64,000 bases of DNA from Haplodiscus bocki (Eukaryota): positions 117,242,001 to 117,306,000 of the forward strand of contig OZ296648.1 of assembly GCA_965655095.1 (NCBI GenBank), read 5' to 3'. This document shows positions 5,659 to 57,000 of this stretch, one piece after another (position 1 is the first letter of the stretch; the number at the start of each line of letters is the position of its first letter). The notes beneath the pieces were generated by a model that saw only the letters and a list, made by a program, of their open reading frames with translations, ran no database searches and was not told the origin of the DNA. Both the position numbers and the translations under genes were made by a program.

Positions 5659-5672
5659 CTTTTTTGTATTCA

Positions 5673-5686
5673 CTAAAAAACAAACA
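5673..5686 (-). promoter_or_regulatory. Putative 3' splice acceptor upstream of the zinc-finger start codon
   Basis: Minus strand reads tgtttgttttttAG|tgaatacaaaaaagATGGCG. Confidence 0.55.
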
Positions 5687-19487: not shown

Positions 19488-19665
19488 TACTATGTGTCCT
19501 AAAAAAACGTTATACACAAAAATTTCGAGCTCTCAAAATGGCCAATATTTGCCAACAATCAGAACAACTCAAAAGTTTTTTCATCTCCGATGTCTTCCTC
19601 ACTAACATTTACCATTTTTTAAGCTCGAAAGATTTACATGTAACGTTTTTTCGGGTCACCTAATG
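19488..19665. mobile_element. MITE with ~60-bp diverged TIRs, Tc1/mariner-like ends
   Basis: Left tactatgtgtcctaaaaaaacgttatacacaaaaatttcgagct aligns with the reverse complement of the right end, cattaggtgacccgaaaaaacgttacatgtaaatctttcgagct. Confidence 0.6.
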
Positions 19666-33500: not shown

Positions 33501-33545
33501 AAATGATTTTTCAAGGTTTGAATATTAGATAGTCAAGAATTTTTT

Positions 33546-33949
33546 ACACAGAGGCGAAGTTGCGCTTCGCAACACTTGCGCCAACGGAATACTAGTGAAA
33601 AATCGAACAACTATAACCTTGATTTTTGAAGGCGCCACGGTTCAACGAAAACTACCGCTTCAGCAATCAAACAGAAATTTAGTTAACTAAGGTAACTCTA
33701 ATAAACTTATACACAAAAGTAACAAGTACGAATTGCTATAGCAGTTAATTCGCTTTACATTTAAAACAAGCGCGCACCCTGTAAAATAGGACACGTGAAC
33801 AAACTTTTGTCCTTGAGCAGCAGCGCATGAATTTTTTGCAGGAAAACGAGAGCGCATGAACAAAATCAAAGAATATTAAACCTCAAAAATGCGGGTTGTG
33901 AACGGATCGAAAAGTTCGCGCAGATATTACACTTACTTGCACAAGTGTA
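33546..33949 (-). mobile_element. Helentron-like element, family A, copy 2, followed by a ~160-bp segment shared with copy 3
   Basis: ACACAGAGGCGAAGTTGCGCTTCGCAACACTTGCGCCAACGGAATACTAGTG is nearly identical to copy 1; ends ACACTTACTTGCACAAGTGTA. Confidence 0.65.
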
Positions 33950-34610
33950 CAACAGAGGCGAAGTGTAGCTCCGGAAAGCTGGCAACCCCAAAGAATCAAC
34001 CCCTACACAATTGGAATAGCCAGTAATGGAAATAAAAACACAGGAAAGCTGAAACTTCGAAGAATCTCAACAAGTATGAAAAACAATTTTCGATACTTTC
34101 TCAGAAATATGCAACGGTGAAACAAATTCATGTAGATAAGGTTAAGAAAGTGTTCCTGAAATCACCACAGCGTCCAAGAAAAGGGACTTTTTCTGAAAAA
34201 AATATGAAAACGACGTAAGAACTTTCTAACAAAACGAAACTGATCTTGATTTTCAAAAAACAGTGTAAGATAATTGGCGGAAAATCGTTGAAAAATTATG
34301 CAAAATTGTAAATTGTGACAGAGTTGATGAAGTTTTGATATAATATTCAAAATTAGAATTTTTCACACCAGAAAATGTATTTGGTTTTGTCATTACAAAA
34401 ACAACCTAGAGACGGATTTTAAACCATAAGAACTATATGGAACAGGCCCTTCATTGCCTCAACATTTTTTTTCACGTGGTTGGTTGATATGCAACGGATT
34501 GCTTCAATTCAACAGATGCGCTGTGAGAAAAACAGAATTCTCAAAATTCAAGTCACAAGTCAGAATGTGTAAAATTGGACTCTCTTTTGGTTCCATTATA
34601 ATATTTTTTT

Positions 34611-35640: not shown

Positions 35641-36640
35641 GTAGTGTAGCAGTAGTAGTAGCAGTAGTAGTCGACTTCTGGGCCTTCTTCCCATGGGAAA
35701 TCTTCCATCCCTGATTTGTTTGCTCTTTGTTTGGCTCTGGTAGTCATCAAGTTAATTTTAATTTGCCTTGGGGGTTGCAGTAGCCACAGAGGCAAAGTAT
35801 ACGCCATGTGCAGGATACCTTCTCGTTGTACTGATCTAGAAAGAACTTCCAGTAAGCTTCAAGTAGGTGTTCTTTGTCCATAGGTTCATTAAGTTGCTTC
35901 ATGTGGCGAGAGAGGATGTTGTACAATTGACTGGCGCGGATTACGAAGTTTTCATCAGCTTTCTTCGTCCTCGTGGATGTTACGACCATTTCATTCCGAT
36001 CGCCCTGCCTGGTGTTCGAGCAGGGTCTCACAGACAATAATTCACTGTGTTCGATGTCCATCTTCTGTTCCAGAAGGTCGAGTAGGAAGAGAACGCCGTG
36101 AAGATCTATGTACAGAGATACCGGTAACAGTTTGCTTTTAATAAGTCTGCATTTGTAGCTGATGTCGTATCCATAGAACCAGGCTGTGGCTTGTTTCTGA
36201 ACTTTTTCAAGTTTTTTCAATGACCCGATGCTGGGGTGATACGCTTGCGATGCATACGTTAGCATTGGCATCACGTACCCTGTGTAGGCATGGATCTTGT
36301 TTTGAATATTGCATTTCTTTGTAACATTACGTCGGATTTTGAAAAGGGCCTTGAGGGCGTTTGCCGAGCGTCTTGACCAGACCGGCATTCCATCCCAGAC
36401 CGTCCTCCACAAAAAGACCGAGGTCCCCTTGAACTGATGGTTGATTGATGCTAACATTATTCAACTGGGCAGACATGTCGCCCTTTATAACTAATAAGCT
36501 ACACTTTTTCTCGTTGAGTTTCATTTCGTTCAACTCACACTATTCTTCAAGCTGTTTGGTACCGTTCTCCAACTCTTCTTGTTGCGTGAAGATGAGTTTA
36601 TAATCGTCTGCGTAGCCAAAATATTCTGCGAGTCTTTAGT
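35641..36640 (-). mobile_element. 5'-truncated non-LTR retrotransposon (CR1-group LINE): RT C-terminus, 3' UTR and (TAC)n tail
   Basis: RT catalytic motif EYFGYADDYKL (~36600-36626), then W(stop)CELNEMKLNEKKC, DLGLFV, YTGYVMPMLTYASQAY, LEKVQKQAT and a Cys-rich end CTWRILCLCGYC. One stop (~36540) and one frameshift (~36385). The tail ACTACTACTGCTACTACTACTGCTAC lies at 35641-35671. Confidence 0.9.
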
Positions 36641-38033
36641 TTTGAGGAGAAATTTTGTGAAGAATATATTTGAGAAAGCAACCCTTGCAAATTAAAAATC
36701 AAACTAAACAAATAAAATTAAAGATCTAATTTCATTAAACTATACTTTAGGGGAGGCAAAAAAATTCAGAGTGCAAAGTTTTTGCGGGTAAATAATTAAG
36801 CAGATATATTTCTGAGTAGACATATTATAAATTTGATTATTCTGTTCATGGAAGACTATTTCTTATCGAGCTATTTTTTCAACAAATTACAAGATTTAAC
36901 GAAGAAAATAGACATCAGGGAAAAGGGCTATAAAACCTTTTTATGGAAAAAAACGTTTTGAATTTCTAAAACTGTTTCAACACAAATAGCTCAGACGGTC
37001 AAAAATTGCTCATTCACAGAATTAAATCTAAAATCTTCAAGCAAAATATTATTTTCGTGACCTTTTCTGGCTCACACTGATACGTAGGTGAGTTACATAG
37101 GTTTAAACAGTCGTTACAGGCCAAAAATCGATAGTGTCATCATTCAAAAGCCCATCTTTGTTCAAGTTTTATGTGGAAATAAGACTATACGCGAGCATGT
37201 TTGATTGTGCTCACCAGGTTTTGAAATATTTGGTGGAAATGAGTCGTCATCACTGTTTAACAAACGGAGGAATGGTTCAATCAGCGCCGCACTATAATCA
37301 GGCGCAATATACTTGAAGCGGGAACGGGACCTTTAGATCTATCGAGAAATTTGAAAAAAGGGGTTTTCATTGTTTCTGGTCACAAAAATTTTCTCAGCCC
37401 GCCGAGAAATCGCGCGGGGATACTTTGGAAATTTGCGGTGTTTGAACACTTTTGGTATAACCCGGGGTTATCACAAGAGTCAGCAGAAAATTTTGTGTCT
37501 CGCAAAGCCGAAAACCTCTGCGGACATTTTACTGTTCTCAAAATTCGACAGTTTCTTGGCACTGGTTGCACTCACTGGTTGAGGAAGTTGGCTTTTGTTC
37601 ATCACCACTTTTCTTTTGGGAGTAGACGAAATCACTCTTCATTTTCGTGGACTACACGGTCGAGAAAAACTAGGCACTGTAAAAGTAGGGCAGTTTGATT
37701 GAATTGAAAAACACTAACTAGATTTAAAAGGGCCCAAATCTCTTCCTCCTTCTGATCCCAAAATTGTTCTCCAACCAATGCATTGCCAATTAACAAGCTT
37801 CTTGCCACAGACCTCTCGCTTTGGTTACACGCCATTTTGTCCACAGCAATTTCAGCCTATGGACTTGCAATCCGTGCCAATTCAACCGCTCACACATCAA
37901 CAAACTTAAAATATTGACCTTTTAAACGTGCTTGAGATTAACAACATCAATTAATCCTCATTAAAACAACACGGGCAACATATTCCAAAACGTTGAATTT
38001 CTGTTCGAACATTTGAAATCTGATATCATTTTA

Positions 38034-38436
38034 ACACAGAAGCGAAGCTGCGCTTCGCCTTTCTAGAGTCAACGGAATACAAGTGAACAACTCGAGCAAG
38101 TATAAATGATTTTGAGTGTCACGGTAATACCAATACTACTGATTAAACAAGTGTACAGAAATTTAATTACCTCAGTTAATTCTTATACATTTACATTCAA
38201 GTTCGAACGACTTTAGTGGTTAATTCGCTTTATTTAAAACAATCTCACATACTCGAAAAAAAGTCCACAGGAACAAATTTTTGCAAGGAAGCAAGAACCT
38301 ATGGAAAAAAATTTGAAACAGCGAGAGCGCATGAACAAAATCTCGGAAGATCAAGATCTCGGAAAAATGCGAGTTAAGAGCGGAGATCAAAAAAGTGGCA
38401 AAAGCCGATGATTTAACACTTCTTTACTTAAGTGTA
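38034..38436 (-). mobile_element. Helentron-like element, family A, copy 3 (more diverged)
   Basis: ACACAGAAGCGAAGCTGCGCTTCGC..CAACGGAATACAAGTG; internal GAGAGCGCATGAACAAAATC shared with copy 2; ends ACACTTCTTTACTTAAGTGTA. Confidence 0.6.
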
Positions 38437-40351
38437 ACAGAGCGGCGAAGCCAAGCCCCGCAAAGCCGGCGACCCAGAACAATCCAACTTTTACAAGCGG
38501 AAAAATCAGTATTGAAAACAAGCACAGGAAAAGTCGAAAATTGGAGAACTTCTAAAAACAATTTTCGATACTTTCTCAGAATTATTAAACGATGATTCAA
38601 AGTTATGCAGACTCAGGACGGAAAAGGATTCCTAACATCACCAGGACTTCCAATACTAGGGACTTTTCTCGAAAATACGAAAAGATGTAAGGAAAATGAT
38701 GTTGAAGCTCGTGTGAGTTTCTAAATACAGAGTGAAATAGTGCACAGCAAAAAACACAAACAGCCATCACTAACACTAAGCAGCTTAGCTTCACAGCTTG
38801 GCTGGTGATTAAATTAGTAGTAGCTAGTTGCTGCCTGATTGATATTCTTCGAAAACGAATGCTCGATGAAAGGCTCATGTGAAAATAATTTTGATTTTTC
38901 AATCACAAGTTTAGTTATATGGACGGCAAGGTAGAGAATATGCCAATCCTGCTTCTAACTAGAAAATGAACGTTGCGTGCGAGTGTTTCGCAATGCGTAC
39001 TAGATGATCCCAATTTGACAACTACCAATCATAGAGATAAGCACTCTTAATACAAAATGCATTTAATACTTCGGATTTTCGAAGTACAAGTCGAGTTAAA
39101 AAGCCTGAAACTGTGAAGTAGTGAGACCCTCTCATTCAGAAGTCTCAACAAGTTGTGGAAAAAATCAATCAACTTTGACTAGACGAACAAGCTTGATAAT
39201 ATGCCGAAAAGTTGAAGGTTTCACTTGAAATAATGGCGTTTTGTCAAAGCACCACAAAAACCGATTTCGAAACCCAATAACTATGAAACACGCCATTCAT
39301 TCCCTATGGGATTTTCCAGGTGATGGGTCGATCAATTCAATGGATGGCTTCAATCCAACATATGCACTCTGAGAAAAAGGATTTGAAAGAAGACTCCACT
39401 GAAAATTTTGAAATTCAAGTTAAAAGTGAGGTCATTTCTCGTATTAATAACCCATCTTTTCACGGAAAAATGGTTTCAGTTAAGAAACGAAAAAGTTTCA
39501 TGCAACTGATGATGGTAACTGAGCAGCGTAGAGTATTGCTATAATTTCGCAAACGCGAGTTTTTTTCTGGAATATAGATTTTTTGATCGTTTTGGCCACA
39601 AAAAATGCCTTCAAGACCAATTTTCGAAAATTAGCTCTCGCTATAAAAATCTGAATTCTAAAAGGACAAAACTGAGACAGAAAAATTGGGATGAAAAATC
39701 GTGCCCAGAAACGATCTCAGCAACGATTGCGCAATTACGCAATAAATGCGAGTTGTGAGCGATACAAAGAAGCGGGTCGACCGTAACAAGCTGGCGTTTG
39801 CCAGCTGAAAAGCCGGAATATTACGAAACCGACGCCTGCTATTCGGATGACGCCCAGAGAACACAAAATGCTAGATAGAAAGATTGGCTCTCGTTGCTTT
39901 GTTTCCCCCCTAAAATATGTGTGGAACATGTCTACGTGGCACGTGTGAAGCGTACAAAGGCGGAACTTGCAAAAAAACAAGATTCACAGAACTTCACTTT
40001 CATAATCGGTGTACAATGAACTGATCATCCTTTACAAATGGAAACTTTCACTAAATTTCCACTAAAACACAATGAATTTTCTGTCTGAGTATTCTCGAAT
40101 CTAATCCACTGAATGAAACTGCGTTCGAAATGTTACTTCAACCGTTAAACCCGTTCACCGACAATAAAATTGTATGATCTCAACGTTAATCATTTGGTGT
40201 GCAGAAAGTACTCCACTCATAAACTCAATGAAAAAACGAAGCCTAAAACGTAAGCTCTTCTAGAGATCCGTTTCCAAAAGAGCTTCAAGCATTACAATCC
40301 AACAATATTTTGGCAACACACCACACCAACTAAACTCTAAAGCAAAGAATT

Positions 40352-40421
40352 AGAGCTGAAAGGATTCGAACCTATTCTTCCAAGTCGCGACCTAGCGTGC
40401 TGACCATCACACTAAAGCTCC
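40352..40421 (-). pseudogene. tRNA-like sequence (tRNA pseudogene or SINE head)
   Basis: Minus strand GGAGCTT-TA-GTGTGATGGTCAGCAC-G-CTAGGTCGCGACTTGG-AAGA-ATAGGTTCGAATCCTTT-CAGCTCT. The D-arm and GGTTCGAATCC B-box are good; the acceptor, anticodon and T stems carry mismatches. Confidence 0.5.
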
Positions 40422-41238
40422 CATTTTCAAGCAATCTCTCTAGACTTAAAGACAAGCTTAGTGGTTGCAACAATACATATACACATACAAGCAAATAAAA
40501 GGAGCCCTCTTGCGCTTGAGAATTGCAAACCACGCGTGCTCTACAAATTAAAAAACGCTGATTCAATCGAAAGAGCACGTGACATATGGGCAAAACTGGA
40601 ACCTAGCCACCTAGACTACAATGTATTGGTTGTTGTACACTCGAAGAAACACTGTTGTAACTCTTTACATTGCCGCATTAAAAGTTCGAAGCTCTAATAA
40701 ACTGTCTAAAATAAACTGTTTGTCTCAAACAAAATTCATAATTCATTATTCACAAAGCTATCTTGAGCTGTGTAACAGTGCATACGCCTCCCAGAAAAAC
40801 TTCATTAGAGGGCAATAAAAATTCAAACAATCCTGGCTCTGAATAATTCATCAAATGAGCTTCAACCATTCATGAGTTTCTGGCACACGAGCAGGAGGGT
40901 CAAAACGCAACTTCTATCAATTTGAAACTGAATGAATTGTATTTTTCAAACGCCCAGAAGAATAATTTCTTCATTTTAACATCTAGTTTTTCGTAAGAAT
41001 GATTTTTTTCTATCTTCGGTCAGAAAAAATGAACGGAGTCTGAAACAAAGACCCAGTCGAATTTAAAAACGTACATAGTGTTGGCATAAGTGCCTAACGA
41101 AATTCATGCTAAACTAGGCACTTGGCTTACTACTGGATATTTTCCACCAACCACATTTGTTCGATATTCGAAAAAGTTGAGATAAAAAAAACTGATTCTC
41201 AAACGTTTATGCTATTTTAAGAATCAATTACAATTACC

Positions 41239-41387
41239 AGTAGTAATAGAAGGGGGAGTGATTAGAACCACTTATGTCTCTCTCCATATAGTGTAGTCGA
41301 GTTAGAGCCACTTATTGCTCCTCGATTTTAATACGTTACCAACTCTTAGTCTAACTTCATCTTAACTTTGACAGCTCATCTAGTTTA
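41239..41387 (+). repeat. Left terminal inverted repeat of the Polinton
   Basis: Starts AGTAGTAATAG. Block 41265-41384 aligns ungapped to the reverse complement of 53911-54030 with 19 mismatches in 120 by manual count. Confidence 0.95.
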
Positions 41388-43446
41388 TTAGCGTGAAAAA
41401 ATTGACAGCTGTTTTATCACAGACAAATAGGCGTACAAAGGGCATTTTTCATTCAATTTGAAGATAATGTTTGCAAAAATCAGAAATGCAAAACTAAACT
41501 ACAGCAGCCTATCCATAACCCATCTGGTCTTCATAATCAGCGTGAACCATAAACGAAGCACAAAAACAACGGAAAAATTAGTATTCAATTTCACTCGAAG
41601 TCGAAAAATCTTCGATAACCCACAGAAAGGACCAATTTGATGTTTAACCGAATCGCAGCTAGTAGAGTTCAACAAACAAACAAACAGAATTCATAGCTTG
41701 CGGATGACAACCAGTCCCGCCACCCCGGCATTGGAACTGTGCTAGCAATCAACAGTTCTCGCAAAAAACCACTCAAATGGAAAATTTCAAAATTACAAAA
41801 CGTGACAATCCAAAGTGATGAAGCTATAACTATGCTTTCGTCGGCCATTTTACAGCAAAGCTTCGCAATGACAAGTGTGTTGAGAGAAGTTGGCTCGCAA
41901 TTCCACTACCTTGTATATTCATCTACTGAAGAAGGCGATCTCGAAGTGTGTGAAGAGCCACCTCTGAAGATTGTGAGGTATGCCAATGAGTTTCATCGAA
42001 CAAACTTGCCGAAAAGCTTCTGTACCATTCTTTAAAAACCAGCTTGGTAGCATGCAATGTGAATACAGTATAAGAGACCACAAACCAGGAAATTATGTTG
42101 AAATAGAAGACATCAAAAATTAATGGAGACCATTACCACATTTTCCTTCATCTGAAATCTTCTGTCGGACCAGAGAAGTTTATCAAAAAGAGCATAGCTG
42201 ACAATTTGACACGAGGAAAATCGCCCCTCAAAAATCGAAAAAGCTACGTCAAATTGTTCAAAATGTAGCACCCAGAAAGCTGTTTACATCAAGAGGCCAA
42301 CTGGCAACCGACTTTCCATACACGGCGAAAAACTTGAGTCGATGGTGCAAGCAAAATGAACCAAGGAATTGGGATGCACCTTCGCAACTGTATGGGAATT
42401 CCAGTGCACTCGCTACACGGAGTTTGACGGGAATGAAGACGCCGAAAAGCTGTCTTATTTGTGCAAAAAGACTGGCAGAGCTATAAAACTCAAAGGCAGT
42501 TTTCAAAGATTGTGTGATTGGTTTAATCAATTTACTTGAACGCGGCTTTGGAAACTTCAACGCTTCACATCATAACAATGTTCGTGCAGTAGACCTCCGC
42601 TATTCCAATGCTCCATGCCAGTTTTTCGAATGCATCCAATGTTCAGACTGTGTATTTGACACAAGCGATGGGAAAAATTTTGAATTTGACCCCAACTTAT
42701 ACTCTTTTATAGAGGAGAACGTTCAATTTGTGTGAAAGGTTCATTTATAATTAACTTGTTCAACAAAGTAGCCTCTTTTCAAAAAACTTTAGATTCTGCG
42801 ACACTTAGTTGAAGCACAATAATTAGACGACAACTTCAAGCTTGCGAAGTATCTTTTCACTAGGAATTCGAAAAGAAAAAACGCCTTTCGCAGAGTCCTA
42901 CTTTCCAGACAAAACCATACACCTCCATGATATAAATAACTTCGCTCCGTCTGGTGGACTAATCGGTCCCGGAAAAAGTAGCAAGTACAGTTTCTTGAAT
43001 TATTTCAGAATTTTCTGTTTGCATGCAATCTTCCACTTCCACGACGCATTTGGATTCATGAGAAGTAACTATAATGTAGGTCCCGGTTACGTTTAGGAGC
43101 TTACAGAAAAACCACTTTTTGAGAACAATATGCTTCTCGGACACTTATCTGGTTTAAGCTATTGGCTTTATCTGAAGTTGTTCCACAGGAAGCTGTATGA
43201 GCAATTTGGGTTTTGCCATCATTTGTGTATGAGCAATCATTTTGTGATTTACCGAAATCGATGTCAGTTGTGCTAGAGTTACCTGTGTTGACCATTTCTA
43301 TACCTAATTCCGAAAAAATTCATCTGAAGGCTTCGCTTTCGACACAGGATCTGAAAAATTGCTTTCAGCAAAATATTAAGGGGAAACATTTCAAGATTCG
43401 ACAAACAATGAATGAGCTAGCAAGAGTGAACCAATCGATTCAAAGC

Positions 43447-43700
43447 GTAATTGACGATTTGTATCACCAAGCTTGCGAAGACGAATCTTTTCCCGACTTA
43501 GTAATTGCCGGAAGACATCACAATATTTAATTGATAGCGTTGAAGCAAAATCTCTGTCAACATTCAATGATAATTGAACTGAATGTTACCCAAATGATTC
43601 TTTTCAAAAGCCCACGCGACTTGGAGCCGATTGGCGTTCTCGGTCGGCAGATGGAAGATCGCAACTACTTCTCGATGCATATAAAAAAGCAACCCAGGAC
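43447..43700 (+). pseudogene. Polinton packaging ATPase (FtsK/A32-like) remnant
   Basis: Walker B and downstream motifs VIDDLYHQAC..LVIAGRHHNI*LIALKQNL..IELNVTQMILFKSPRDLEPIGVLGRQM, then after a frameshift LLLDAYKKATQD. No Walker A found upstream. Confidence 0.85.
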
Positions 43701-44187
43701 AAAAAAAATTGATTGATAACGTATGCAATGAAAACGCTGGAACTAGGCGAAAAAGACAGATCCTGTCGGCTGCAAACGGATTGAAACTGCGTGCTTTGGT
43801 ACAACTTTCAGTCCCCAATCATTTAAAGAGGCGCCATGGTATCGTCTAAAATCTACCTAAAAGATCGCAATACAGGAATAGCAGTTTTGAATTTTTTTTT
43901 CGAAAACGAGAGAAACCCGTTTGAACCAGCCCATGAAAACAATGAGCGAGCCAAATAGCTTCGACTGTACAGAGCAAGGCGTCTTTCACTCGTCTCAAAA
44001 ACGATCCACGAATCAGCAGCTGTGAGGGAAATAGTGGGACGACGGTAGGCACGAGCAAAAAGCGTTAAATAGAAAAAGCGTTGAATAGACCTGTGGCGAC
44101 TCCCAAAAACCACTTGCCAAAGGCTCACACCAGCAAACTTTCATCTGGTGCAACGTTCACGGTTGGGTTCATTACAAATGTAGTTGC

Positions 44188-45125
44188 ATGGGAACTGTTT
44201 TCGAACACACGGAAAATTGGGACAAATTTTCAAGCTTTTATTTAACGAGAACGCGGCGTTTGGTACCAGCGAATCAAGAAACAGTCACTTACAGTAAGCT
44301 ACATAACTTGTATACGTCCTGTAAAATTCCTGCCTCTTTCGTAAGCCCAAAATCATTGAAACTGAAACTATAGTCAAATTGTACCTACAACGAAATCGAT
44401 AATTTTGTACAAAAAGTGAGACCTATACAAAGTTCAAACAAGCCCACAGAAACTTCAAACGACTCGAAGTTCGAAGATACAGACTCAATGATATCTGGTC
44501 GTTTGATTTGACTGACATGCAGCCACTCTCCAAATACAACCAAGACATAACGTTCCTTTTTGTTGCTGTCGATACACTTAGTCGCTTCCTCTGGGCTCTT
44601 GCACTCCGAGGAAAAAAATCAGCTGCCTGTAATCAAACCAATATTGCGGGCGTTAGAAGTGGCCACAAAGATTGTCCACCCAAGCATTACCGCGACCCTA
44701 ACGCTCTATCGCTAGAGCCGGAGAAGACTTGGGTTGACAAGGAACGCGAATTTGTACGCGAGCTTTCTAGCTTTTGTCAACAATCGGGTCTCAATAACTA
44801 TTCATTCTTCGATTTGCAGCGAAACGAAAAGGGCGTTGCTTGCTGAAAGGAACATTCGCTCGTTAAAGTCCACCGAAGCGTTTTCTAACTTCTCTATAAA
44901 TTTGTAACCCAATCAGCAAATTAAAGTTCAGAAATGTACAACATGTTAGAATTCGTCGCAAAATAGATCTCTTTCATCAAGGATATCGCATACAATTCAG
45001 GGAAGAGGTGTTCTAAATTGAAAAAGTCGAAACATTGAATCACCCACTGAATCATTGGGAGATTCCAACGACCAGTTGATCCACGAAAAGTTCTACGACA
45101 GCGAGCTCATGTGTTTTGAAAAAGA
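44188..45125 (+). pseudogene. INT: Polinton retroviral-like (DDE) integrase
   Basis: LHNLY..PASF, IWSFDLTDMQPLSKYNQ..FLFVAVDTLSRFLWA, PEKTWVDKEREF, AERNIRSLK, then HVRIRRKIDLFHQGYRIQFREEVF..KFYDSEL. Several frameshifts. The start position is uncertain. Confidence 0.93.
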
Positions 45126-45169
45126 GGACCACGATCAGAAAAACAACAAACTAAGAAATAGTTACGGAA

Positions 45170-46165
45170 ATGGACAAAAGCGACAGCTTCGCCATTAGCT
45201 TATTCTCAAACGAAAAAATGTCAACATTCCCGGAAAAAAACACCAGCCAAATTCACAATTTTTTCACCACCATCGTTGAGCTTCCACGGTACATAGGAAG
45301 TTGCCATAGTAGAACTATCATGGCCGAAATTGATTGAAAACGTGACAGAAGGTCTATGCAGTTATCAACTAACTGCAGGCAAGGAAATTATTGGCTCGAT
45401 CTCAAAACCCTCCTTCGCAGAGAAACCACGTTTTCATAGCGGCATAGTTTCCATGCGTGATCCCCGTAGCTTGAGGAACAGAGCAAAACCGACGTTTGAG
45501 GAAGATGCATTTTCACCGGAAAAAAATTCTCCATAACGGAAGACTATCACCCCTCTGTATATTCCATCATTCAGTCAATGAACATAAAACTATGCAGGAA
45601 AGTTGGGTGGGACACCGATCAATCACATTTTCACTTGGACATTTGCGAAGCGTCGCAGTTACTTAAGTTCAATTTCGTTCAATGGTCGCAAACAGAAAAC
45701 AAAAAACTCCTCGAAGCTGTTTCTCAAGACTTTAAAAATATCTTGGGCCTGGAGTACTTAGTTGAGAGCTGTTGCCAATCTCAATGTGAAAACAACGCCA
45801 CTGAAGAAGGTCACAGAATGACGAATCCCAATCAGGTGAGAAAAAGTTGAAACAAGGTGGAAGGGGCAAATCGAGGCTACTGGTCACTTTTCAGATGACC
45901 CAACAGCTGGGTTGCAAACAATGTTTGTTTACAGAGACTTGGTTCAAAATGAAATAATGGGAAACACACGAACGCTTCAACTCAAGAAGTGCCTCTCAGT
46001 AGCAACAAGAGTTATCAAACATTCACCAAACTTCAATGGCGTCGTGTTATAAAAGCCTCCACTCATTCAATAACCATCTCTCTCCGAAGTGAAACTGGCG
46101 ATTTCAATCCATTTCTCACCCGCGGATAACAAAAATTAACGTTACAATTCAGGCAGGTGAAATAA
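45170..46165 (+). pseudogene. Polinton minor capsid protein (penton, single jelly-roll)
   Basis: N-terminal FAISLFSNEKMSTFP..LSFHGT*EVAIVELSWP. C-terminal DPTAGLQTMFVYRDLVQNEIMGNT..YQTFTKLQWRRV..SITISLRSETG..PF..LTLQFRQVK*. Confidence 0.82.
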
Positions 46166-46451
46166 CTGCAATGAAATGGGAGAACTCGTGGCAAAACCAT
46201 CTATATTCATCGCTGCGCCATATCAATTACTAATTCGGAGGTTACTGAAGCAGTCGTTTTCTCAACTCTCAATAAAAATACCTTCCAGCCTGTCAGCAAA
46301 ATCTGATAATCCGACAAAACGCCACGCAGATTCGACATTCAACAACGATAGCCGCCCATTGTCATCATTATTCTGTTTTTGAGAAACGGAGACTAATAAG
46401 GTCTGTTGTGTCAAGCGGTAGGAAGGTGAGAAAAAAAACAACTACCATAAA

Positions 46452-47000
46452 ATGGGCGCCCACTTTGATCATCAAACTCAACAAAAGACATTTAGAAAAC
46501 CCAATATGGTGACGGCCGGCAGGTCTGCACGCCAGTTTGGGTCAGGAGGACTGGGCGCATTTGCAACGCGGAAGGGGCGGGTGGCAATACCCCTCGTGAA
46601 ACAATATGTGAAGACTGTCGCCAAACAATTAGGCAAGAATCTCATCAACATTTGTGCCCGAAAATACTAACGTCATAAGCGGTAAAAAAACGAACAAAGA
46701 CAGTGTTGCGTGGAACATTCAAAAAGACTGCTGCAAAAACAATAGCTTCTACCTCTGCCTCATCATCAAAAAGGACAAAAGGAAACTTGTCTGAAATTAC
46801 ACGAGCGAATGGCTCACCGCGGCGGCGCGCAAACGCGCGCGCGGACGGTGCACCTGGACATTCACCTTGAGGGCAGCAAGTCACCAGGATCGTTGAACCG
46901 TGGAAAAAAGTTTAAAGAAACCATCACCATCATTCCTCGCAACAAATGTGTAGGAAGAAGTCAGTCTGATACACTTGCTGGTGTTGCCTTCAGCAAGTAA
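46452..47000 (+). pseudogene. Polinton small basic core/membrane-active protein remnant
   Basis: RQFGSGGLGAFATRKGRVAIPLVKQYVKTVAKQLGKNLI (Q-x-G-x-G motif then an amphipathic helix) followed by K/R-rich sequence, in the expected position just upstream of the major capsid gene. Confidence 0.65.
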
Positions 47001-47071
47001 TAAAAGCAGTCAATTATTCATTTAGTTGAAGAAGAAAAAGATTACAAGAAGTCAAAAGGGAAATAGAATTA

Positions 47072-48438
47072 ATGAGTGGTGATGAAGAGTTCCAGCGGCG
47101 CAAGCAGCAATCAAATTTTCTTTTTTGGGTGTTCCAGCCAAATTGCCAATACAGTGGCCCACAGTGCTCTGGACTTTTCGAATAACCATCTGTACTAATC
47201 AATTATGGAGGTACATTTGATCAAGAAGTGCTTCCACAAGTAGGTAGCAAAGGGCCTCAGATTGATTTTTTTTCGTCAAATCCGACAATAAAAAGTGCAT
47301 CGACTTGAATCGAATCTGCTTCGGATTGGAATTTATAATGTGAAACCGGGGCGTACAAGATGCTGCGACGCTGGACCAGGTGCTTTTCTCGAACAACACT
47401 ACACTCTCCATTTTCCCATGTTGAATTGTTTCGAAAACTTATTTCTAATAGCAACAACAATTATCATCACCCGGCGTTTGTCGAGACAGAAGTGACTACA
47501 GATCCAGTCAGCAAAAAGACTTGGAGTGTTTGTCCAGCCAACCAGCATCGAACAAACGAAGGGAAGAACTTAGAATTGAAGGATGAAGTCATGAAAACTC
47601 GCCAACGAGGGAATTTGTTCTTTTTACTTGTACAGAGCTCCATATGTCGACTTTTTGGATTGCGAACGTTTACTAACACCGGGCGTGACTTTGCATTTGC
47701 GCTTCTATCGATCTCTAAATCACAGCGCTCCGGAAACTTTGACTAATTTGAGTGACGCCGAAGTATCGGCGCTCGATAAAAATTGGCCCGCAGTTGTTTC
47801 GAAAAAGCTGTTTGTCAACTAGATTGTTCTGTCGGACATTGTGAAGGTTGGCATCGAGCGAGCGCTCAGAAAAAGTTGCGCGGTACTTCCATACACAGAA
47901 AAATCAACAAAATCTTCATAATACAGTCGGGGCAGAATTGCTTTCTGGCAGAAAACGTTTTTGGCACGGAACCTGTGTGTCAGCTTCCTTTGTGTATGAT
48001 GTGGAATCGATAGTTACGTGGAACAACGACTGCTTCGATGCCCTTCAGGTACGAAAAGTTTGATTCGCACAAAGTGGGGCTTCCGAGAGGCAACGGTTTA
48101 CCCAATACAGGGACGCCGCTGGACACATCAAACGACACACGACTATATTACAACCCCATAAGAGCTTTGGGATTTGAGCGAGGCGGCGGCGGAATTACTG
48201 TGGAAGATTATCAGGCTAACCATTTCTACCTCGTGTTCGACCTAACTTCAAACAGGTAAGCAAGCAAAAGTTTCACCCTCTTTCCGGAAGTGAACGCAGC
48301 AGGCATAATATTGAAATTGTCTTTCAGCAAAGCATTAGTAGAAGCGGTTGAACTATTATTAAATGGAAAACGATTCAGTCAAATTATCATTAAAACTCAG
48401 GGATTATTTCAAAACCTTCATCGCTGGCCAATGGATAA
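47072..48438 (+). pseudogene. Polinton major capsid protein (double jelly-roll)
   Basis: HSALDFS..GPQIDFF..CIDLNRI, TLHSPFSHVEL..LISNSNNNYHHPAFVET, DFLDCERLLTPGVTLHLRFYRS, FIIQSGQ..ENVFG, PFRYEKF, GITVEDYQANHFYLVFDLTS and GIILKLSFSKAL are colinear across frameshifts. Confidence 0.9.
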
Positions 48439-49045
48439 ATTGATTTTAACCTGTCTAGGCGAAAGTTGTCCCAGTCTAACTCGCAATTCAGTTGACGTGG
48501 TTTCATCCGACAACTCCTTTTTGGGTTCGGGACTTTGGGCATTCGGACTCTGCTGTCGCAGGCGGTGAAAACTTTTTCTATCAGATTGTAAGCAGTGCTG
48601 CGCACAATGAAATTGGGCAACATTGGCTTTTGCTGCTATACATCGTGATACCTGATCGAAAAAAAAGCGCAACGACAAATTGATGAAGGTGATTATCATT
48701 TGAGATCCCATCGGTTTGCCCTTCATAAGATATAAAACTTTAGGCAAACAGTCGGCGAGCCTTTCATCAGAATCAAAAAAAGTTTCAAGATAAATTTCCT
48801 TTGGCAAAACCCCAGCTCTAACCTCGGGGGACTTTACTGTTTGTTTATGGCTCACTATCAAAAACAAATTCGATTCGCGGAAAACGTCTCCACCTTGTTG
48901 CGCGACAGAAAGAAAAATTTCCTTTCAAATTAGTCGCTCCCTTACCAAATTGAGCAACGTTTCAGGGATCGAAGTTATCCGGTATTTCAACATACATTAT
49001 AAATGTAATTTCAGATACAAGATTCGCTACAATCAATTTTAGTTT
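48431..49045 (+). pseudogene. PRO: Polinton adenain-like cysteine maturation protease
   Basis: MDKLILTCL..VVSSD, QIVSSAAHNEIGQHWLLL (catalytic His), DPIGLP, QNPSSNLGGLYCLFMAH (the catalytic Cys position now reads Gly). Confidence 0.8.
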
Positions 49046-49050
49046 GAAAG

Positions 49051-49056
49051 AATAAA
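49051..49056 (+). terminator. Putative polyadenylation signal closing the plus-strand structural gene block
   Basis: AATAAA lies where the plus-strand and minus-strand units converge. Confidence 0.4.
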
Positions 49057-49063
49057 GTTCACT

Positions 49064-49595
49064 CAGTTTCCATTGTCAGACTCACTGCTGTCACTGTAGA
49101 TAACAAGTTTACACCCGTTTTTTTGCGATGGTACCTAAAATACTATTGTCATCGCGCGTACCATTTCCTTCTTTCAACTGTTCTGCTTCCCATTCTATGA
49201 ATGGGTGAGTCATTGTTGTTGATTGACCCTGCTCGGCCTCTGCGACCATCTCATCAAAGCGGTCACATTCAACACATTTGTCGTCATCATCATCAACATC
49301 CCAATAGTCAGCTTGATGAAAACCAGGATCCGGAGGACCTAAAGCTTACATACTGCCGATCTTTGAAAATTCAAAATTTACTATTGAAAAACAATCTAAC
49401 TAATAGCAATCTAGCTGAAGCTTGGCTGCTGAAGTAGAGAATGTAAAGGTGTTGGCGGAGTTGCACGTTGAAGATCCACCGAGAGATGATCAGTATAGTC
49501 TTCTCTTGTGTCAATGGAACCATTGGTTAAGTACCAGGAACTGGCATTTTCAATCTCATCATCACTGTGACTGATTATCGAGGAAGCGCAAGAAC
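49064..49595 (-). pseudogene. Acidic coding segments downstream of pPolB, probably two spliced exons (49595-49401 and 49338-~49064)
   Basis: Phase-1 compatible GT..AG introns. Translation includes PPDPGFHQADYWDVDDDDD and HPFIEWEAEQ. Confidence 0.5.
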
Positions 49596-49633
49596 CTACG
49601 AAGCAAAAAAAACGGAAATATACACTGGAACAA

Positions 49634-52600
49634 CTAACAATAAACTTGCTCGTCTGATTTTTTGCCAATTTTGCCTTGTCCATATGCGAGCGATTTGACA
49701 CCATCATCGAGTAAATATCGTTTGTCATCAAAACTGCTCATGGCAACTTTGTGCATACGATTGACAACAATCTGATGATTCTTGGATCTCAATTTTGTCA
49801 GGGACTTTTTAAATCTTCCTTTATTCAGCAGACATTCTCAGTACAAATCATGACGCAGCGTTTTCTTGAGTTCTTTGCAATCCCTTTGAACTCTCTTTGA
49901 CGACCCCTCGAATTGAATACTCTATAATTCAGAACTCAGGCAAACAATTTCACTCGAAACCTTTCCATGTAAATCATCCGTCATGGCAAGCGGTACTTTT
50001 TTGTTGGTTTCGTGTAAAAAACGCTCTTCTGGGTAATCCGACAAGATCCTTGAAGGTCGCCATTTACGAATAACGATCTTCAGTTTCGATTCTATACAAA
50101 TATGAGTCGGTGTCTTTGTAGCAAACGTTTACTTTGTCGCCAAAGCGCGGGTTCATTTCGTCGTAGCGAAATTTTACTTAAACACAGTGTCGACAAATCA
50201 AGTAACGAAGCTCTTACGGGAGTGGGTTTTGACCGAACAATCCTACTTGGAGAGAAGAAAACAGAGACTAAGCCATCATGAAAATGACAGGATTTAAATG
50301 TTGGCTTCATCAAACACTGTTGCGCCTGCTTCTCGTTATTTACAAAAATGATCTCGCGTCGATTGCAAAAATTCTCCCTAGTTTTTCCCAAACAAGCGTT
50401 GCACATCAATTTAAAACAATTTTCTCAAAGTCATGTGATGCTTGCTTTCCCGCTGTGTTTTTTGAAATATAATCCCCCAGCCATTTGCTTTCCCGAAACT
50501 GTATAACACGATGAAGTTTTTTGTCGTGAGAACATGATTCACGTGAAATTCAAGGTTACGGTCGTGGGAGACATAGCAACTTTTACCCAACAACGTTTCA
50601 ACAAACTTCTGTGTTCCATCACTTGGTAACTTAACATTGAAGGATTTGGGGTAGGGAGATAACCATGGTTCATGAATCAAAAGTCTTTCGGGCCCCACAG
50701 GTAAATCATTCTGAGAGTTATGTAAAGAAGAAGAATATATGATATCAAGTTCGACAAACTATCCATTCACTGCATCACCACCAGTAGGAGGGATATCATC
50801 CAAAGTGATTGCATCATTCGAATCATAGTTGTCCAAGGGTAGAGTTTGCTGCATAGTACCAACATACAAAAAAATTTCATGAAAAAATGCATCATCAACA
50901 CTTGTTCCTGATTCATCAAAGTTGTTCAAATCCTTAATATTCGTCTGAAAGTGGCGCAGCTTACCAATTCCGTTAATACCTACCCGAAGTCCCCTCCCGA
51001 AAAACAGCAACATATCGATGTCCGTCAATAAACCCAAATCAACGCGAGTTGTAATCAGCATTGCTTCTCAGCTCAGATTTGGTGCTGAGAAGTGAGCTGG
51101 ATCTAGTTGATACATTTTCATATAAACTTGCCGAAAATTTTCAAAAACATCCGCTAGAATCACAACATCTGTTCGTAAGTACACATCATGATAGTCCCCC
51201 AGAGTGCCACAGCCGAAAAGATTGTAGAATCCTAAGGCTTCACAGAAATATCAATTATGCCTGTTAACGTATTTTTCCAGTCATTGCCATAACTTGGGAG
51301 GGGTTCATTGAATTTTTGAAAGAGTGCAGAAATGAATAAGGGAAGAGACCTTGGCGAGGAAGCAGCTTCCAGTTCACATTCGGATGTTTTGTCAAGAAAT
51401 TTCAAAAGGTTGTAATCATCCGCTTTTAGAGTTTCTGCCAGAGATTCCAAAGTTTGCGACATGAACTGGAAGCTATCGAGAATACTAAGGTTGTTTGTAC
51501 TTTGTACATTTTTACCCTGTGTTTTACCAATTTTTGTGATATAAGACGCAACAGGAACAGATATGCTAAAAGAAATGCAGATCTCATCTGTTCGCGATAC
51601 TGCAGCCAATTTTTCACCAGGGAGATAATTCAAAATTTTTGACTATGTGATGTGCATCGTACCGTGATAGGTTATCAAAAAAATGGGAAAAAGTTGGTTG
51701 ATCGCGCCTTCAAGCTGCAGGAAGAGTGGGCCACACCATAAATCTTACGAGTAATATGACAGTGATGGATAACACGCTGCGAGTGAGATACTGTCCACAA
51801 ATGCAACAGATGACTGTAAGCGGGGATAAAAACTTTTGACGCTCTGCCTGAGACAATTGAAGCCATCTGAAGGTCTGTTTTTGTCCATAACCCCAGCTTA
51901 ACCAAGAGAGAAGAGTTTCCATAAGTTTCGGAATGCAATCCAGTCCTCGATAAAACTCCGACTTCTGAATCAAATTCGCTGAAACAAGAAATATTGTTAG
52001 ATTCTTCATGAAACAAGATACAGGACATGCACCTCGTAAACAGAAACAGTTCAAAACGGAATGAAAAAAACGTAGGAATCGGTAAGATCTGAAAAAACTA
52101 ACAATAGGAGTCAACCATGATAGTTCCAAAGCTGGCAGGATATTGGCGTTCAGTTTCAATTGTGGTTTAATTGCTGTTTCCACCTTCACCATCAGTTGCC
52201 AAGTCGATTGCTTCTAAGTCTGCATGTACAACAAACGGTTTAAATTGCGTTTATTGCTCATTTTCGGATGCCAGTTTCTTCCTATTCTCAGCATGTTGAT
52301 CTCAAGAGGTTTGTGGTGCTCACGAAACTAGAAGTGCTGGTGAAAATTCTGTTTTACAATTGATTGCATACAGTTCCCACAAAATCTAGTTTTTGGACCA
52401 TTCAATCTTTTACGCGAAGACCGAGCCAAATGATGCATGAGATTTGAGAAGTTTTTGATTAAGCAAAAGTGACTTCTCTTGTTCTCGATCAGCAGTAGAA
52501 GTTTCATTTTTCGTCAAGACTTTCGCTTTTTGTATGAAAACGTTCAAAAGACTAACAATAAACAGATATTGAAGCATCATATCGTCTTTCCAAAGTCATT

Positions 52601-53459
52601 GCTCAAAGTCATTGAAAAATCAGATATCTCATATGCAAGCTCACTCATGAAAAGCAAGTATGAGGACGGTCGCTCGACATGGATTTTTGCGGGAATAAAC
52701 CAACAAGTACAGCGTTAATAAATAAAACTTGTCCTTATTCTTAATGGTAAGCAAACTTTGGTAGATTTTTTCGAGTTCAGTTGGGGTCTCATAAAAGATG
52801 AAGCAGCGCTTTTGAAGGGACCGGCCATCCTGTTCTCCAGAGTTCCGATAACCCAACCAGATCCCGCAGAATAAATTGAGAAAGCAAGCTGTCAATCATT
52901 TTGGCAGTTTCGTCTGTGTCCAGCTGATGGGCTACACGCGCCATTGATGAATGAAAATATACTGTAACAAAGTGGTCTTCCAATGGTTCGCAAAGTTTTA
53001 CACTGCTCTCTCTGACCCGTACGCGGGTAGTTTCTCGTTAACAAAAAATGTGATACTCTGTTCATTGGAATTTGAAAACTGGGAAGGTTGCACGTTTTCG
53101 TGTCCGAAGTTCAAATGAAAAACTTTGAAGTTATCGTTCATTGAAGTTTGAACAAAACAAGCTTCAAAATTATGGTCAGAGACGGGGCGCTGAAACAGCA
53201 GAGCGCGAAGCTTGAAGATGGGTCTAGAGGATCTCTGCGCATCCGAAAAAAAGTGAAGGTCATCTGAAACTCCCAGTCAAAATGTGAACAGTTCGAATGT
53301 GGCGAAGAAGTTTGAAGGATGACGACAGACTCTGATCACAGTGACCACCACAGAAAGTTTGGATATGCAAAGTTGGCTCTAAGTTGTGTTCGAGCGAATG
53401 TGCTGATATAAAGTCCTCTTGGATGAGAAAGCAGTCAGACAGTCTTCACATCGAAGCAT
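49634..53459 (-). pseudogene. POLB: Protein-primed family B DNA polymerase (pPolB) with N-terminal C2H2 fingers and an HNH/endonuclease VII-like insert
   Basis: In order: GSGWVI (52853-52864), IKNKDKF and HFCLIKN, Exo I PFVVHADLE, CCICG..HHCHITRKIYGVAHSSCSL, Exo II DNLSRYDAH, ILDSFQFM, Exo III YLRTDVVILADVFENFR, LLTDIDMLLFF, DLPVGPE, motif B KLMCNACLGKTREN, motif C YKDTDS (~50104-50121), and C-terminal SSFDDKRYLLDDGVKSLAYG. Many frameshifts and stops. Confidence 0.95.
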
Positions 53460-53907
53460 TTTGCTGAGGAACATTCAAAAAGGCCTAACTTTCGAAGTTC
53501 ACACCCATTGAATCGTAGTTCGCTTCGTCAATCTCAGGTATGGGAAAATTTCCGTGCATTATGTGGAAAAACTTTTCATCAGGCCCAGTCACAACGTTAA
53601 ATTTACATCGCGATTATAAAATGAGATCACAAAAGTGATCACAAAAGAAGCCCTCCATTAGAAGCCGAATTCAATTATTAGGATTTGAAATAGAAACCGC
53701 GGCTGAAAATCAAAAAAACGGTATTCTTCAAATTTGGAAATGCAGTCTAGCTTTTTCAACCAAATTGGTTGATTGCTATACGCTTTCAAATTCGTGTGTT
53801 CAATGAAGAATTCCAGTAAAGCACGAAGAGTTTTGGATATCTCCATCAGCATTTCAATATTTACAAAGTTGAATCTTGATTTTTATGTTTGATAACTTTC
53901 AGAAAAC

Positions 53908-54051
53908 TAAACCAGATAAGCTGTCAAAGTTGTCACGAAGTTAAACTAAGAGTTCAAAACGTATTAAGATTGAGGAGCAATAAGTGGGTTCAACTCGACT
54001 ACCCTATATGGAAAGAGTCATAAGTGGCTCTAAACCTCTCCTATTACTAAT
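53908..54051 (-). repeat. Right terminal inverted repeat of the Polinton
   Basis: Ends CTATTACTAAT (one substitution from the expected CTATTACTACT), immediately followed by the TSD ATTACC. Confidence 0.95.
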
Positions 54052-57000
54052 ATTACCTAAGAACACGAAATAAAATTTCAAAATTTGGCTCAAAAAAGCG
54101 TTTCGATGAAATACTATTTACATGTTTTCTATCGCAAGTTTGCTACCATTTCCCAAATTAAAGTGACCAGCAACCCCTTCTGCCTGATTGGCCGATTAAA
54201 CTTTCAATATGTGCAGGACATTTTGAAGATCCTTCCACGTTTATTTTTAAGCTTCGAAATCACTGTTATCACGCTGAATGAACAAAGCAGGCGAGTGATT
54301 TTTGCGGTCGACTTGATGAACTCACTCATTTTTTTAATTCGGCATGATCATTATGACGCCATAACCGAAACAAAAACACTGAGTTTTGATTACTCGCTTT
54401 TAATTAGCTCGCTATTTTCACTTGATGGCTTCCGCAATAACGCCAAAATTGGAGCGTTAGCGTGAGAGCCGAGACACGGTTCATTAGCTCCATTTTATAT
54501 AGGATATAGGAAGGATAGGATGGAAGTTTTACGGAAAACTTAAATTTCGATCCAAAAGTTGTCACTATGAAGAATTTTCCACGCGTATGGCAAATTTTAT
54601 ATTTTATTTTGGATCCGAAGTTTCGAATGTAGTGGTTTACGTTTTGAAAAGCACGCGGCGAGTGGATGATTTTCCCCAATTTGAAATATTGCGAAAAATG
54701 ATGTTTACTCAAATCAACTACACTTTTACCATCTTGAGGGTCTTTAAAAGACAAATTATAAAACACGAGTTCACCATTTTGCCAGGCCTTTTTAGTCGGC
54801 GCTACTGTTCAAAAAGTCAGACTTCTGCAGTACTTAGTTGTTTTTAGGATCGACGAAATCACCGTGTATACGACCTTTTCTTTGACCAAATTTGACGTCT
54901 CTACTATTCGCTTTCACCAGGCCTTTAGAATGTACCAAAAACCAGAATTTCAGCATATATCCAAAATGAAAAACATCAAATTTTTTCGCGAAGACAAACG
55001 CCAAAATTTTCTGTAAAAATTCAATCATCAGGCCTAAAATTTTCGACCTTGGGTGATAGTAGACTTTTTCGCCAGAAAAGCCGACAATTCTCGAAAAAGG
55101 GTTCACCCGAGGATATTTTGAGTCATACGGGTGGTGCCGATTTCGGTTGTTCCCAGCTTGTTTCAGATGTGCTTCCCTTTTAGGAAAATTGAAGATTAGG
55201 TTGACGTTTTGGGTCACGAAATTAATTCTTTTGGTGGATTGCTAAATATCATAAGACAAGCACAATACGTGTTACCGTCGCAAACATGTTTGCGGCTGGT
55301 ATTTAAAAATTGTACATCAACCCAATTTACAATTTTATGTTTACCCGTCTTACGCGATTTGGTACGTAATCAATTTATCAGAGGGAAATAGAGCTCTAAA
55401 CATTTTTAATCAAATTTCCCTACAGTTGCTATCAATTGAAAATTGCGAAAGAACTTTGTGAAAAAGAAAGATTGAATTAGTTCTTATAATACGTCAGTTT
55501 TCAAGGAAAGTAGTGAAAACAATGAAAGTTCAGTTCAAACTGTGAAAAATTAATCGGCATGCCAAAAACAATTATCACAGAATTTGATTCGTTGCATGAA
55601 CTTTTCTGTGGAGACATGCTTGCCCCGCGTAATTGTCTGATAAAATTTGTCTAAGCGTGAACTGAGAGAACCTAGAAAAGTTTCAACATTTTAGAGTTTC
55701 ATCAAATTTACAGCGATACTTAATTGAAAGTTAGAGTCCCGGTTGCCCTTTCGTTTGGCAATTTTGCCCTCTTTCCAGATTTTGAGTTGTTTCATGAATA
55801 TGTATGTCAAGATCGGAAAATGAGCTTTTCTAGAGTTCAAACTTTGACTGTTACCGTTCGAAAATAAATGGAAAACCAAATATCACAAAACACTTCAGTG
55901 ATCACTGCACTAGAAAACAATGTCAACATTAATACAAATGGTAGAAACTTACCAAATCACAATTGCTTCGATTCCTTGGTTGAATCGGCAACACGAACCC
56001 AAAAACTTAGTAATGTTTAGATCAGAGATTAGTAACAACCAAACAGCACCTTGGATGATAGACTTCCAAAATTTGTATCTAGGCTGTTCCTTTGGTTTCT
56101 TCATGAAGCTGAAGCACCACTTCCAGCGTCAACTGGACTCCACATAGGTCCCTCACTTCCATTTTAGGGATTAGAATTTATACTCCCCGACAGCCATAGT
56201 ACTTGACACCAAAAACACACAGCAGCGAGTTCCCATACAATCTTTAATGTAAAAGAGTTGTTTCTTGAAACTATGACTCATTATTAGCGTTCGATTGAGG
56301 GTTATGCAAGCCAGATGTAGCAGCAGCAGATATCACAATAATATGAGAACCTACACAGCATTTCGTAATTCCAGAGTACTTCAAAGTGTATACTGGAATG
56401 TCTGAAACGGTCTTGGTAAAATGGTCTCGAAGTTCCACTTTACAAAGAAGGAATAAGAGCAGGAGCATGTGCTATATAGCCTAGGAACTTTTTCACAGGA
56501 GCCTTTTCAAAGAGAAACACTCACCCCACTCGGAGAGGACTTCAGAATATTTTGGGGATATCTACTGGGTCTCCTTTATTCCTCATTCTGTTCTCCCGCG
56601 AATCAAGATAAATAAATTCAAAATTTCCCGGCGTTTAACATTTCAAAAGTATATTGACTGATGATTAAGAAAAAATTCAGTTTTTTTTAATTTATGCGCT
56701 CTCACCGCTACAATGATGGCCCGTATGGTCTCTCCTCCACTCCCACGCAGCTTTGTTGCGTTTTGAAACGAAAATTTTGAAATGTTTCATTATCGCATGA
56801 ACATCCAAGTATATTGACTTGGAAAACAAAAACATTTTTAAATTGTGAGCTCTCACCGCTATGATGGTAAATAACTTCTGACGGCCACTAATCACTCAAT
56901 TAACCAGAAGTTTTCAACAAACACCACTGTTTTGTCAGCGTTTTACTGTCGAGTATGTAGGCCTATCACATCGACTTTTTTCGTAAGATGATGACAGTTT

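Follow-up and report, generated by a model that had tools for sequence, protein, structure and literature searches.

Polintons (Mavericks) integrate with a 6-bp stagger, multiply by protein-primed copying and are packaged into double jelly-roll (DJR) particles; staggered joining and host repair generate a 6-bp target-site duplication (TSD). In vertebrates, Mavericks of 12.7-24.6 kb carry terminal inverted repeats (TIRs) of 46-1,447 bp with the end motifs (AG)3 or (AGT)2, and 96% of the loci are decayed (Barreat and Katzourakis, PMC8097293). In adintoviruses, inverted repeats enclose genes for PolB, an rve integrase, an FtsK-type ATPase, adenain, hexon and penton; the PolB references of their Alpha and Beta classes are those of Mayetiola and Terrapene, respectively (Starrett et al., PMC8502044). 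In the pPolB2 Polintons of nematodes and oomycetes the protein-primed polymerase pPolB contains an HNH/Endonuclease VII-type nuclease domain (Jeong et al., PMC10748475). Mavericks make up 4.5% of one acoel assembly (PMC6451197). Here we describe an element in a 64,000-nucleotide stretch of Haplodiscus bocki DNA (contig OZ296648.1, positions 117,242,001 to 117,306,000), called the window below and numbered from its first letter. The element is very probably a fossil Polinton, well bounded and derived from one integrated genome, and its pPolB gene contains an intron-like insert.

Ends and gene order of the element

The element occupies positions 41239-54051 (12,813 bp) and is a single integrated copy. 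Directly outside its ends stand two exact copies of the TSD ATTACC (41233-41238 and 54052-54057), as the sequence-only reading of this locus had stated; two random 6-mers from the window are identical with P = 4.7e-4. The same reading had described both TIRs as starting with AGTAGT. This is correct for the left TIR (41239-41398, plus strand), but the right one (53897-54051, minus strand), read on its own strand, begins with ATTAGT and differs at one position. The TIRs are about 160 bp long, with a local alignment score of 188 compared to a maximum of 52 among 297 random pairs. Their identity is 81.6% across 147 columns (blastn), and a global alignment contains 32 mismatches in 160 columns, 16 of them transitions and 16 transversions. 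No second copy of the TIR was found elsewhere in the window or internal to the element. The 6-bp TSD, the (AGT)2-type motif carried by the left end, a TIR length within the published range and an overall length of 12.8 kb, near the lower limit of the 12.7-24.6 kb given for whole elements, are all shared with vertebrate Mavericks (PMC8097293).

No open reading frame (ORF) longer than 160 aa survives in the element, as noted before: the longest Met-started ORF has 160 aa and the longest stop-to-stop frame 168 aa. Homologues, cited here by P numbers, were retrieved with single frames of the window in which stops were read as X; domain and capsid definitions were taken from PMC11161782 and PMC4028283. 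The pPolB piece matched 452 proteins (E <= 0.001), the capsid piece 136, the ATPase piece 35 and a frame across the minor capsid gene and its downstream neighbour 70. Mapped back to the window, the best 120 of the 452 pPolB matches all fell on the minus strand inside 49640-53459, and the best 120 of the 136 capsid matches all fell inside 47082-48677. The same applied to 64 of 69 matches of the minor-capsid frame (45237-47416) and to all 35 ATPase matches (43204-43698). In total, 956 tblastn high-scoring segment pairs lay within the element and none outside, and three triplet-shuffled controls gave 0, 0 and 0. This mapping is partly circular, the homologues having been retrieved with pieces of the window, yet coverage extends far past those pieces. 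In frameshift-aware alignments the remnants of the MCP, minor capsid, small basic and ATPase genes described below scored 297-1343 compared to null scores of 27-40.

Both approaches confirmed the order and strands proposed from the bare sequence. On the plus strand lie remnants of the ATPase, the integrase, the putative minor capsid protein, a small basic PW-like protein, the major capsid protein (MCP) and the putative protease, on which pPolB converges from the minus strand; no gene is duplicated. The succession INT-mCP-PW-MCP-PRO corresponds to the second module of vertebrate Mavericks, which likewise converges on pPolB, and the decayed state is shared, too (PMC8097293, section 7 for the module). 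Unlike in those elements, the ATPase remnant lies upstream of the integrase on the capsid strand and not beside pPolB. Further differences are the C2H2 fingers at the N-terminus of pPolB, its Endonuclease VII-like insert and its apparent intron. No counterpart of the vertebrate Maverick genes pz and pm was identified in the element (PMC8097293). With adintoviruses the element has in common PolB, hexon, rve integrase and FtsK-type ATPase, together with a putative adenain and a putative penton, all flanked by inverted repeats, and its location in an animal-like genome (PMC8502044). TSD, TIRs, gene set and gene order together uphold the sequence-only reading of a fossil Polinton/adintovirus-like provirus.

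Pfam applied to 12 long six-frame read-throughs returned nothing beyond rve (E 0.016), zf-C2H2 (E 0.05-0.07) and a single spurious match. Three MCP homologues, four minor-capsid homologues and most of those of the core protein could be assigned to no Pfam family. No relatives were found in phages, none of 23 pattern matches in GTDB genomes was confirmed, and an Rfam scan detected nothing within the element.

The pPolB gene and its intron-like insert

The decayed pPolB gene (49679-53459, minus strand) is preserved over its full length. It shows 57% identity to residues 1-1257 of the 1268 residues of P0005, interrupted by 21 frameshifts and 13 stops. The N-terminal C2H2 fingers and the Endonuclease VII-like insert were recognized via P0005 and P0003. 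In the alignment the columns of Exo I-III, Pol B and Pol C are largely identical, and Pol A is retained at 3 of 7 positions. Among the best 120 of the 452 pPolB matches, 21 carry a precomputed PF03175 and 62 a PF02945 annotation; the 60 PDB matches listed for P0005 concern zinc fingers only. The poor PF03175 match of full-length relatives leans towards the 'divergent' Beta adintovirus PolB. The nuclease domain inside pPolB is shared with the pPolB2 Polintons, but such an insert is widespread among distant pPolB matches and therefore does not by itself tie the element to that group (PMC10748475).

In FastTree trees, for which a length filter retained 119 of 120 pPolB and 94 of 120 capsid matches, the pPolB of the window clustered with P0001-P0012 in a clade of 13 (support 1.0) and, within it, with P0001-P0004 (support 0.97). 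The capsid protein of the window was nearest to P0121; its tip length, 0.27, could largely be explained by 10% neutral decay. Intact-looking capsid relatives are represented by 37 matches of at least 430 aa with a mutual identity of 49-100%. In each of the pairs P0004/P0124 and P0002/P0125 (pPolB and capsid, respectively) the longest contig has the same length for both matches, which suggests that the two proteins may lie on the same elements. No name is attached to any of the 120 pPolB, 120 capsid and 35 ATPase matches listed. The earlier suggestion that divergent motifs mark an undescribed lineage therefore stands only in part: a clade of unnamed proteins exists, but relatives reach 78% identity (capsid half) and 82% (ATPase remnant), and because of these values much of the 'divergence' reflects post-insertion decay and truncation.

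Near residue 475, at a point not mentioned in the sequence-only reading, the pPolB gene of the window is about 41 codons longer than P0005 and P0012. In all three close homologues spanning this site (P0005, P0007 and P0012), 10 residues separate a conserved Asp from a conserved Phe-Tyr pair; in the window this distance is 124 nt greater. Only one of the 31 possible placements of a 124-nt segment between these anchors has GT..AG ends, namely 52102-51979 (minus strand). This segment starts with the donor GTTAGT, carries CTAAC 22 nt before its end, shows 11 pyrimidines in 17 positions and closes with the acceptor TTTCAG. GT donor, branch point, polypyrimidine tract and AG acceptor form the consensus of U2-type introns. 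The insert contains 47% T compared to 31% in the gene. Such a combination of donor and acceptor, multiplied by the number of placements, is expected with a frequency of 2.8e-4, and ends of this kind occur in 2 of 127,752 window segments of the same length, one of which is the insert itself. Two points weaken this evidence: bare GT..AG ends arise by chance in about 9% of cases (0.0031 x 31 placements), and the fuller splice patterns were chosen after the sequence had been seen.

Further evidence comes from P0004, a 797-aa ORF of the same sub-clade that is open to the C-terminus. It begins with residues matching the translated acceptor of the window (VSA shared) and lacks the Asp conserved in the spanning homologues. 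P0007 starts at the same column and has the Asp motif intact. ORF starts at positions 473-491 were found in 5 of 12 close homologues, 4 of which do not span the site, and in none of 108 distant ones; this clustering is weak, the close set being rich in fragments. No comparable insert was seen in the other genes with homologues to compare, a scope that leaves aside the integrase and the regions without match; the largest, 21 codons, distinguishes the minor capsid gene from one of two homologues.

From these signals we consider it probable that the 124-nt insert originated as a spliceosomal intron. It might instead be an ordinary insert gained after integration, either a piece of host DNA or a small transposon, with ends that resemble splice sites by chance. 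Large insertions are indeed common in degraded Mavericks, where Genewise calls them introns (PMC8097293), the close homologues P0005, P0007 and P0012 lack the 124 nt, and P0004 could begin with true coding sequence that has lost one residue. A chance insert has to account, however, for the rarity of the joint splice ends, even granting that the patterns were picked afterwards, and for the branch-point-like CTAAC. Furthermore, its ends show no target duplication and no second copy is present in the window, and P0004, which lacks the conserved Asp, begins with residues matching the translated acceptor. We regard this alternative as rather unlikely, though it deserves to be kept in mind.

The simplest reading is an intron common to part of the lineage. 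Whether an animal Polinton sub-lineage kept a pPolB intron while it was active, through self-synthesis and re-integration and beside intronless sisters, is a question on which we consider the evidence evenly balanced. In vertebrate Mavericks the intact elements are intronless (PMC8097293), and in nematode Mavericks the core genes are intronless and the cargo genes intron-bearing (bioRxiv 10.1101/2022.07.12.499685). Cryptophyte Polinton-like viruses (PLVs) carry group I introns (PMC12220804). Integrated elements with spliceosomal introns, which are predicted here from sequence signals, are known from the introner-bearing Polinton-like proviruses of dinoflagellates; those introns are transposon-made, mostly post-integration and found in protist hosts (PMC11957031). 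Unlike these, the element described here has a single intron-like insert, which lies in a core gene; repeat ends were not seen on it, and the window contains no further copy. No report of an intron in an animal Polinton core gene was found in the literature searched, the original Polinton/Maverick descriptions and Repbase aside; a word find in the available text of PMC10748475, PMC11296320, PMC8502044, PMC11131425 and PMC3671162 returned none in a Polinton core gene.

Downstream of pPolB, a small acidic ORF of 78 aa (49109-49345, minus strand) shares a short motif with the C-terminal extension of P0011, a pPolB relative (weak match, E 0.035). Perhaps it represents a conserved accessory gene.

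Virion genes, integrase and ATPase

The decayed gene of the DJR major capsid protein (47100-48435, plus strand) is full length, too. It aligns to residues 4-454 of P0122 with 67.6% identity, 6 frameshifts and 5 stops. A model of P0122, built with 37 homologues, reached a pLDDT of 78 and matched the capsids of PBCV-1, iridovirus, mavirus and Sputnik (best E 6e-15, TM 0.5-0.6); its matches in BFVD were adintovirus, adomavirus and virophage capsids. In the Atlas, a DJR-like cluster scored 0.98, with the family on 65% of its members and neighbours led by Nematoda and Echinodermata. As modelled, this full-length relative folds as a double jelly-roll.

Between integrase and MCP lie two further genes. 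The putative minor capsid gene (penton, PX; 45218-46156, plus strand) is decayed and shows 42-47% identity to P0300 and P0262, with 3-5 frameshifts, 3-4 stops and scores of 356 and 406 compared to a null of at most 40. By eye its motifs agree with PX rows in supplement 3 of PMC4028283. It is located one gene upstream of the MCP gene, which is the PX position. Judged by their row codes, the rows concerned are presumably those of sea urchin, Ciona, Xenopus and CPB. A decayed gene for a small basic protein (46452-46991, plus strand; 55% identity to P0249, 3 frameshifts, 0 stops) follows where vertebrate Mavericks carry pw; by this positional analogy it may be compared to pw, and 'core protein' is its earlier label. 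It received 62 of the 70 matches of the frame across both genes, one being the window's own ORF. That 72-aa ORF (46452-46670) is 100% identical to the cluster representative P0241, which means that a fragment of a pseudogene has been called as a protein. The small, amphipathic and basic product may also be compared to the 'Cupiennin' label used for adintoviruses.

A decayed cysteine protease gene of the Ulp1/adenain type (48433-48900, plus strand, approximate ends) would follow the MCP gene. The tail of P0178 aligns at 48576-48852 with a score of 101 compared to a null of 31-32, and is similar to clusters of Peptidase_C48 (score 0.94, with 38% of the members carrying the family). The decayed integrase gene of the rve (retroviral) type is found at 44290-45140 on the plus strand, with ends set by eye. 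Its ORF 44403-44846 matches Pfam rve with E 1.9e-4 (22.1 bits), and an IS481 DDE transposase match has an E of 0.0011; these matches are weak and lie in the expected place. No PDB sequence matched this region.

Of the A32-like packaging ATPase, a middle fragment remains (43447-43697, plus strand; 82% identity, 1 frameshift, 1 stop). It spans residues 94-180 of a 237-aa relative, the C-terminal ~55 residues being gone, and a profile match is likewise limited to positions 83-185 of 233. PF04665 is annotated on 13 of the 35 ATPase homologues, and P0313 matches Pox_A32 with E 1.7e-8. The ATPase remnant had been claimed with a divergent motif. Its middle fragment was indeed found, but a profile built from 19 of the 35 homologues detected no N-terminal half with the Walker A motif anywhere in the window, and for this reason the motif is more likely absent than divergent. 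A GPGKS-like stretch at about 42956-43051 was rejected as Walker A; it reached only E 4.6-8.5 in tblastn and gave no profile alignment.

About 2.4 kb of the element matched nothing. The region on the left (~41600-43400, plus strand, approximate bounds) received no match from the fetched homologues and no credible Pfam, NCBIfam or PHROGs match; it probably holds one or more decayed accessory ORFs. A Cys-rich CxxCxxC stretch seen by eye in this region (42487-42735, plus strand) has a weak PHROGs match to the NinG/Rap endonuclease (E 0.053). The second region (~43700-44290, plus strand, approximate bounds) gave no Pfam match in three frames. A 16-nt tandem duplication is present at 44057-44089, between ATPase and integrase.

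Decay, history and surroundings of the element

Assuming that the TIRs were identical at insertion, their Kimura two-parameter distance of 0.23 corresponds to about 0.10-0.12 for each copy. As 4.3% of substitutions create a stop, a divergence of 0.10 predicts 15.4 stops in pPolB (13 observed), 5.6 in the MCP gene (5), 3.5 in the minor capsid gene (3-4) and 1.1 in the ATPase piece (1). These counts fit the divergence of the TIRs, and therefore the element was coding at insertion and has drifted since. The values are in line with an intact insertion followed by decay of about 10% per site without selection.

The history of the element may be pictured as follows. In the active lineage, pPolB would have copied linear DNA from the inverted ends by protein priming; judged by homology, the lineage encoded DJR capsid, penton, packaging ATPase and maturation protease, and its genome would have been packaged into DJR particles, virions being expected from the family. 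During transcription in the nucleus the host spliceosome would have removed the short pPolB intron, as its sequence signals suggest. The rve integrase would then have inserted a Polinton genome into a eukaryotic, probably animal, chromosome, where scattered indels accumulated and larger stretches near the ATPase were lost. Every gene is now broken, from which we infer that the element makes none of its own proteins.

Several results weigh against the reading as a decayed Polinton. Four pPolB relatives (P0005, P0012, P0013 and P0059) gave no PF03175 match in the Pfam scan, the Walker A half of the ATPase is missing, and the rve match of the integrase stays below the cut-off of 32.6 bits. The penton model was poor (pLDDT 44), its best Z being 4.6 for an EhV-201 capsid entry and 2.7 for the mavirus penton, and the minor-capsid profile had no PDB sequence match; the putative identity of this protein comes from position and motif likeness via relatives. 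The same applies to the protease, which is recognized through P0178, the window's own frames having no Pfam or PDB match. The evidence for integrase, protease and minor capsid is weaker than that for pPolB and MCP. Finally, the small basic gene has 0 stops where 2.2 are expected.

Broken frames could also be errors in the sequencing or assembly of an unpolished long-read contig, the element itself being intact or nearly so. Errors of assembly are known to break up regions of this kind (PMC11131425), and 5 of the 21 pPolB frameshifts adjoin a homopolymer of at least 5 nt, compared to a background of 11%. The other 16 do not, nor do 5 of the 6 shifts in the MCP gene; the 32 substitutions in 160 TIR columns agree with the number of in-frame stops, and a zinc-finger ORF of 553 aa elsewhere in the window is unbroken. 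Such errors are an extremely improbable explanation. That the locus is a composite, made of two adjacent Polinton fragments or produced by recombination between related copies, with ends from different insertions, is suggested by the ATPase, cut on both sides and flanked by sequence without match, and by the difference of about 20% between the TIRs. The exact TSD at both ends, the lack of any duplicated gene or internal TIR copy and a stop density of pPolB and MCP that fits one age make this very improbable as well. We therefore retain a single Polinton genome that inserted intact and decayed.

The unbroken ORF just mentioned (4054-5715, minus strand) is Ser/Asn-rich, carries two C2H2 fingers towards the C-terminus (zf-C2H2 in Pfam, E 2.2e-7) and probably encodes a host transcription factor. 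A non-LTR retrotransposon is represented by a fragment at about 35747-36700 on the minus strand, where one frame matches RVT_1 (E 1.8e-4) and a 237-aa ORF comes next in a different frame. This fragment is bracketed by two dispersed repeats of ~600 bp each (33541-34136 and 38029-38611; 4.48 kb apart, 70-84% identity), of which a shorter third copy occurs at 18463-18524. An inverted repeat at 19491-19662, with 59-nt arms that are 73% complementary and 54 nt apart, resembles a miniature inverted-repeat transposable element. A tRNA-like sequence (40351-40421, minus strand; Rfam RF00005, 35.5 bits), which lies ~800 bp away from the element on its left side, may be a tRNA, a pseudogene or the head of a short interspersed element. 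The flanking C2H2 gene, the reverse-transcriptase fragment and the Atlas neighbours agree with an animal host.

As a fossil the element carries minor weight, fossil Polintons being common and decayed copies the rule, as the vertebrate loci show (PMC8097293). It is a clean and datable example, with both ends, a TSD and a consistent decay clock. If the pPolB intron is real, it would be evidence, read from the DNA, that the active element was expressed in the nucleus in a spliceosome-dependent manner, and replication of the element would depend on the host spliceosome. It would also represent a recent and traceable intron gain. Surveys requiring a pPolB ORF of at least 900 aa (PMC10748475) would then miss such elements or call them broken, and filters on ORF length would undercount living Polinton families.

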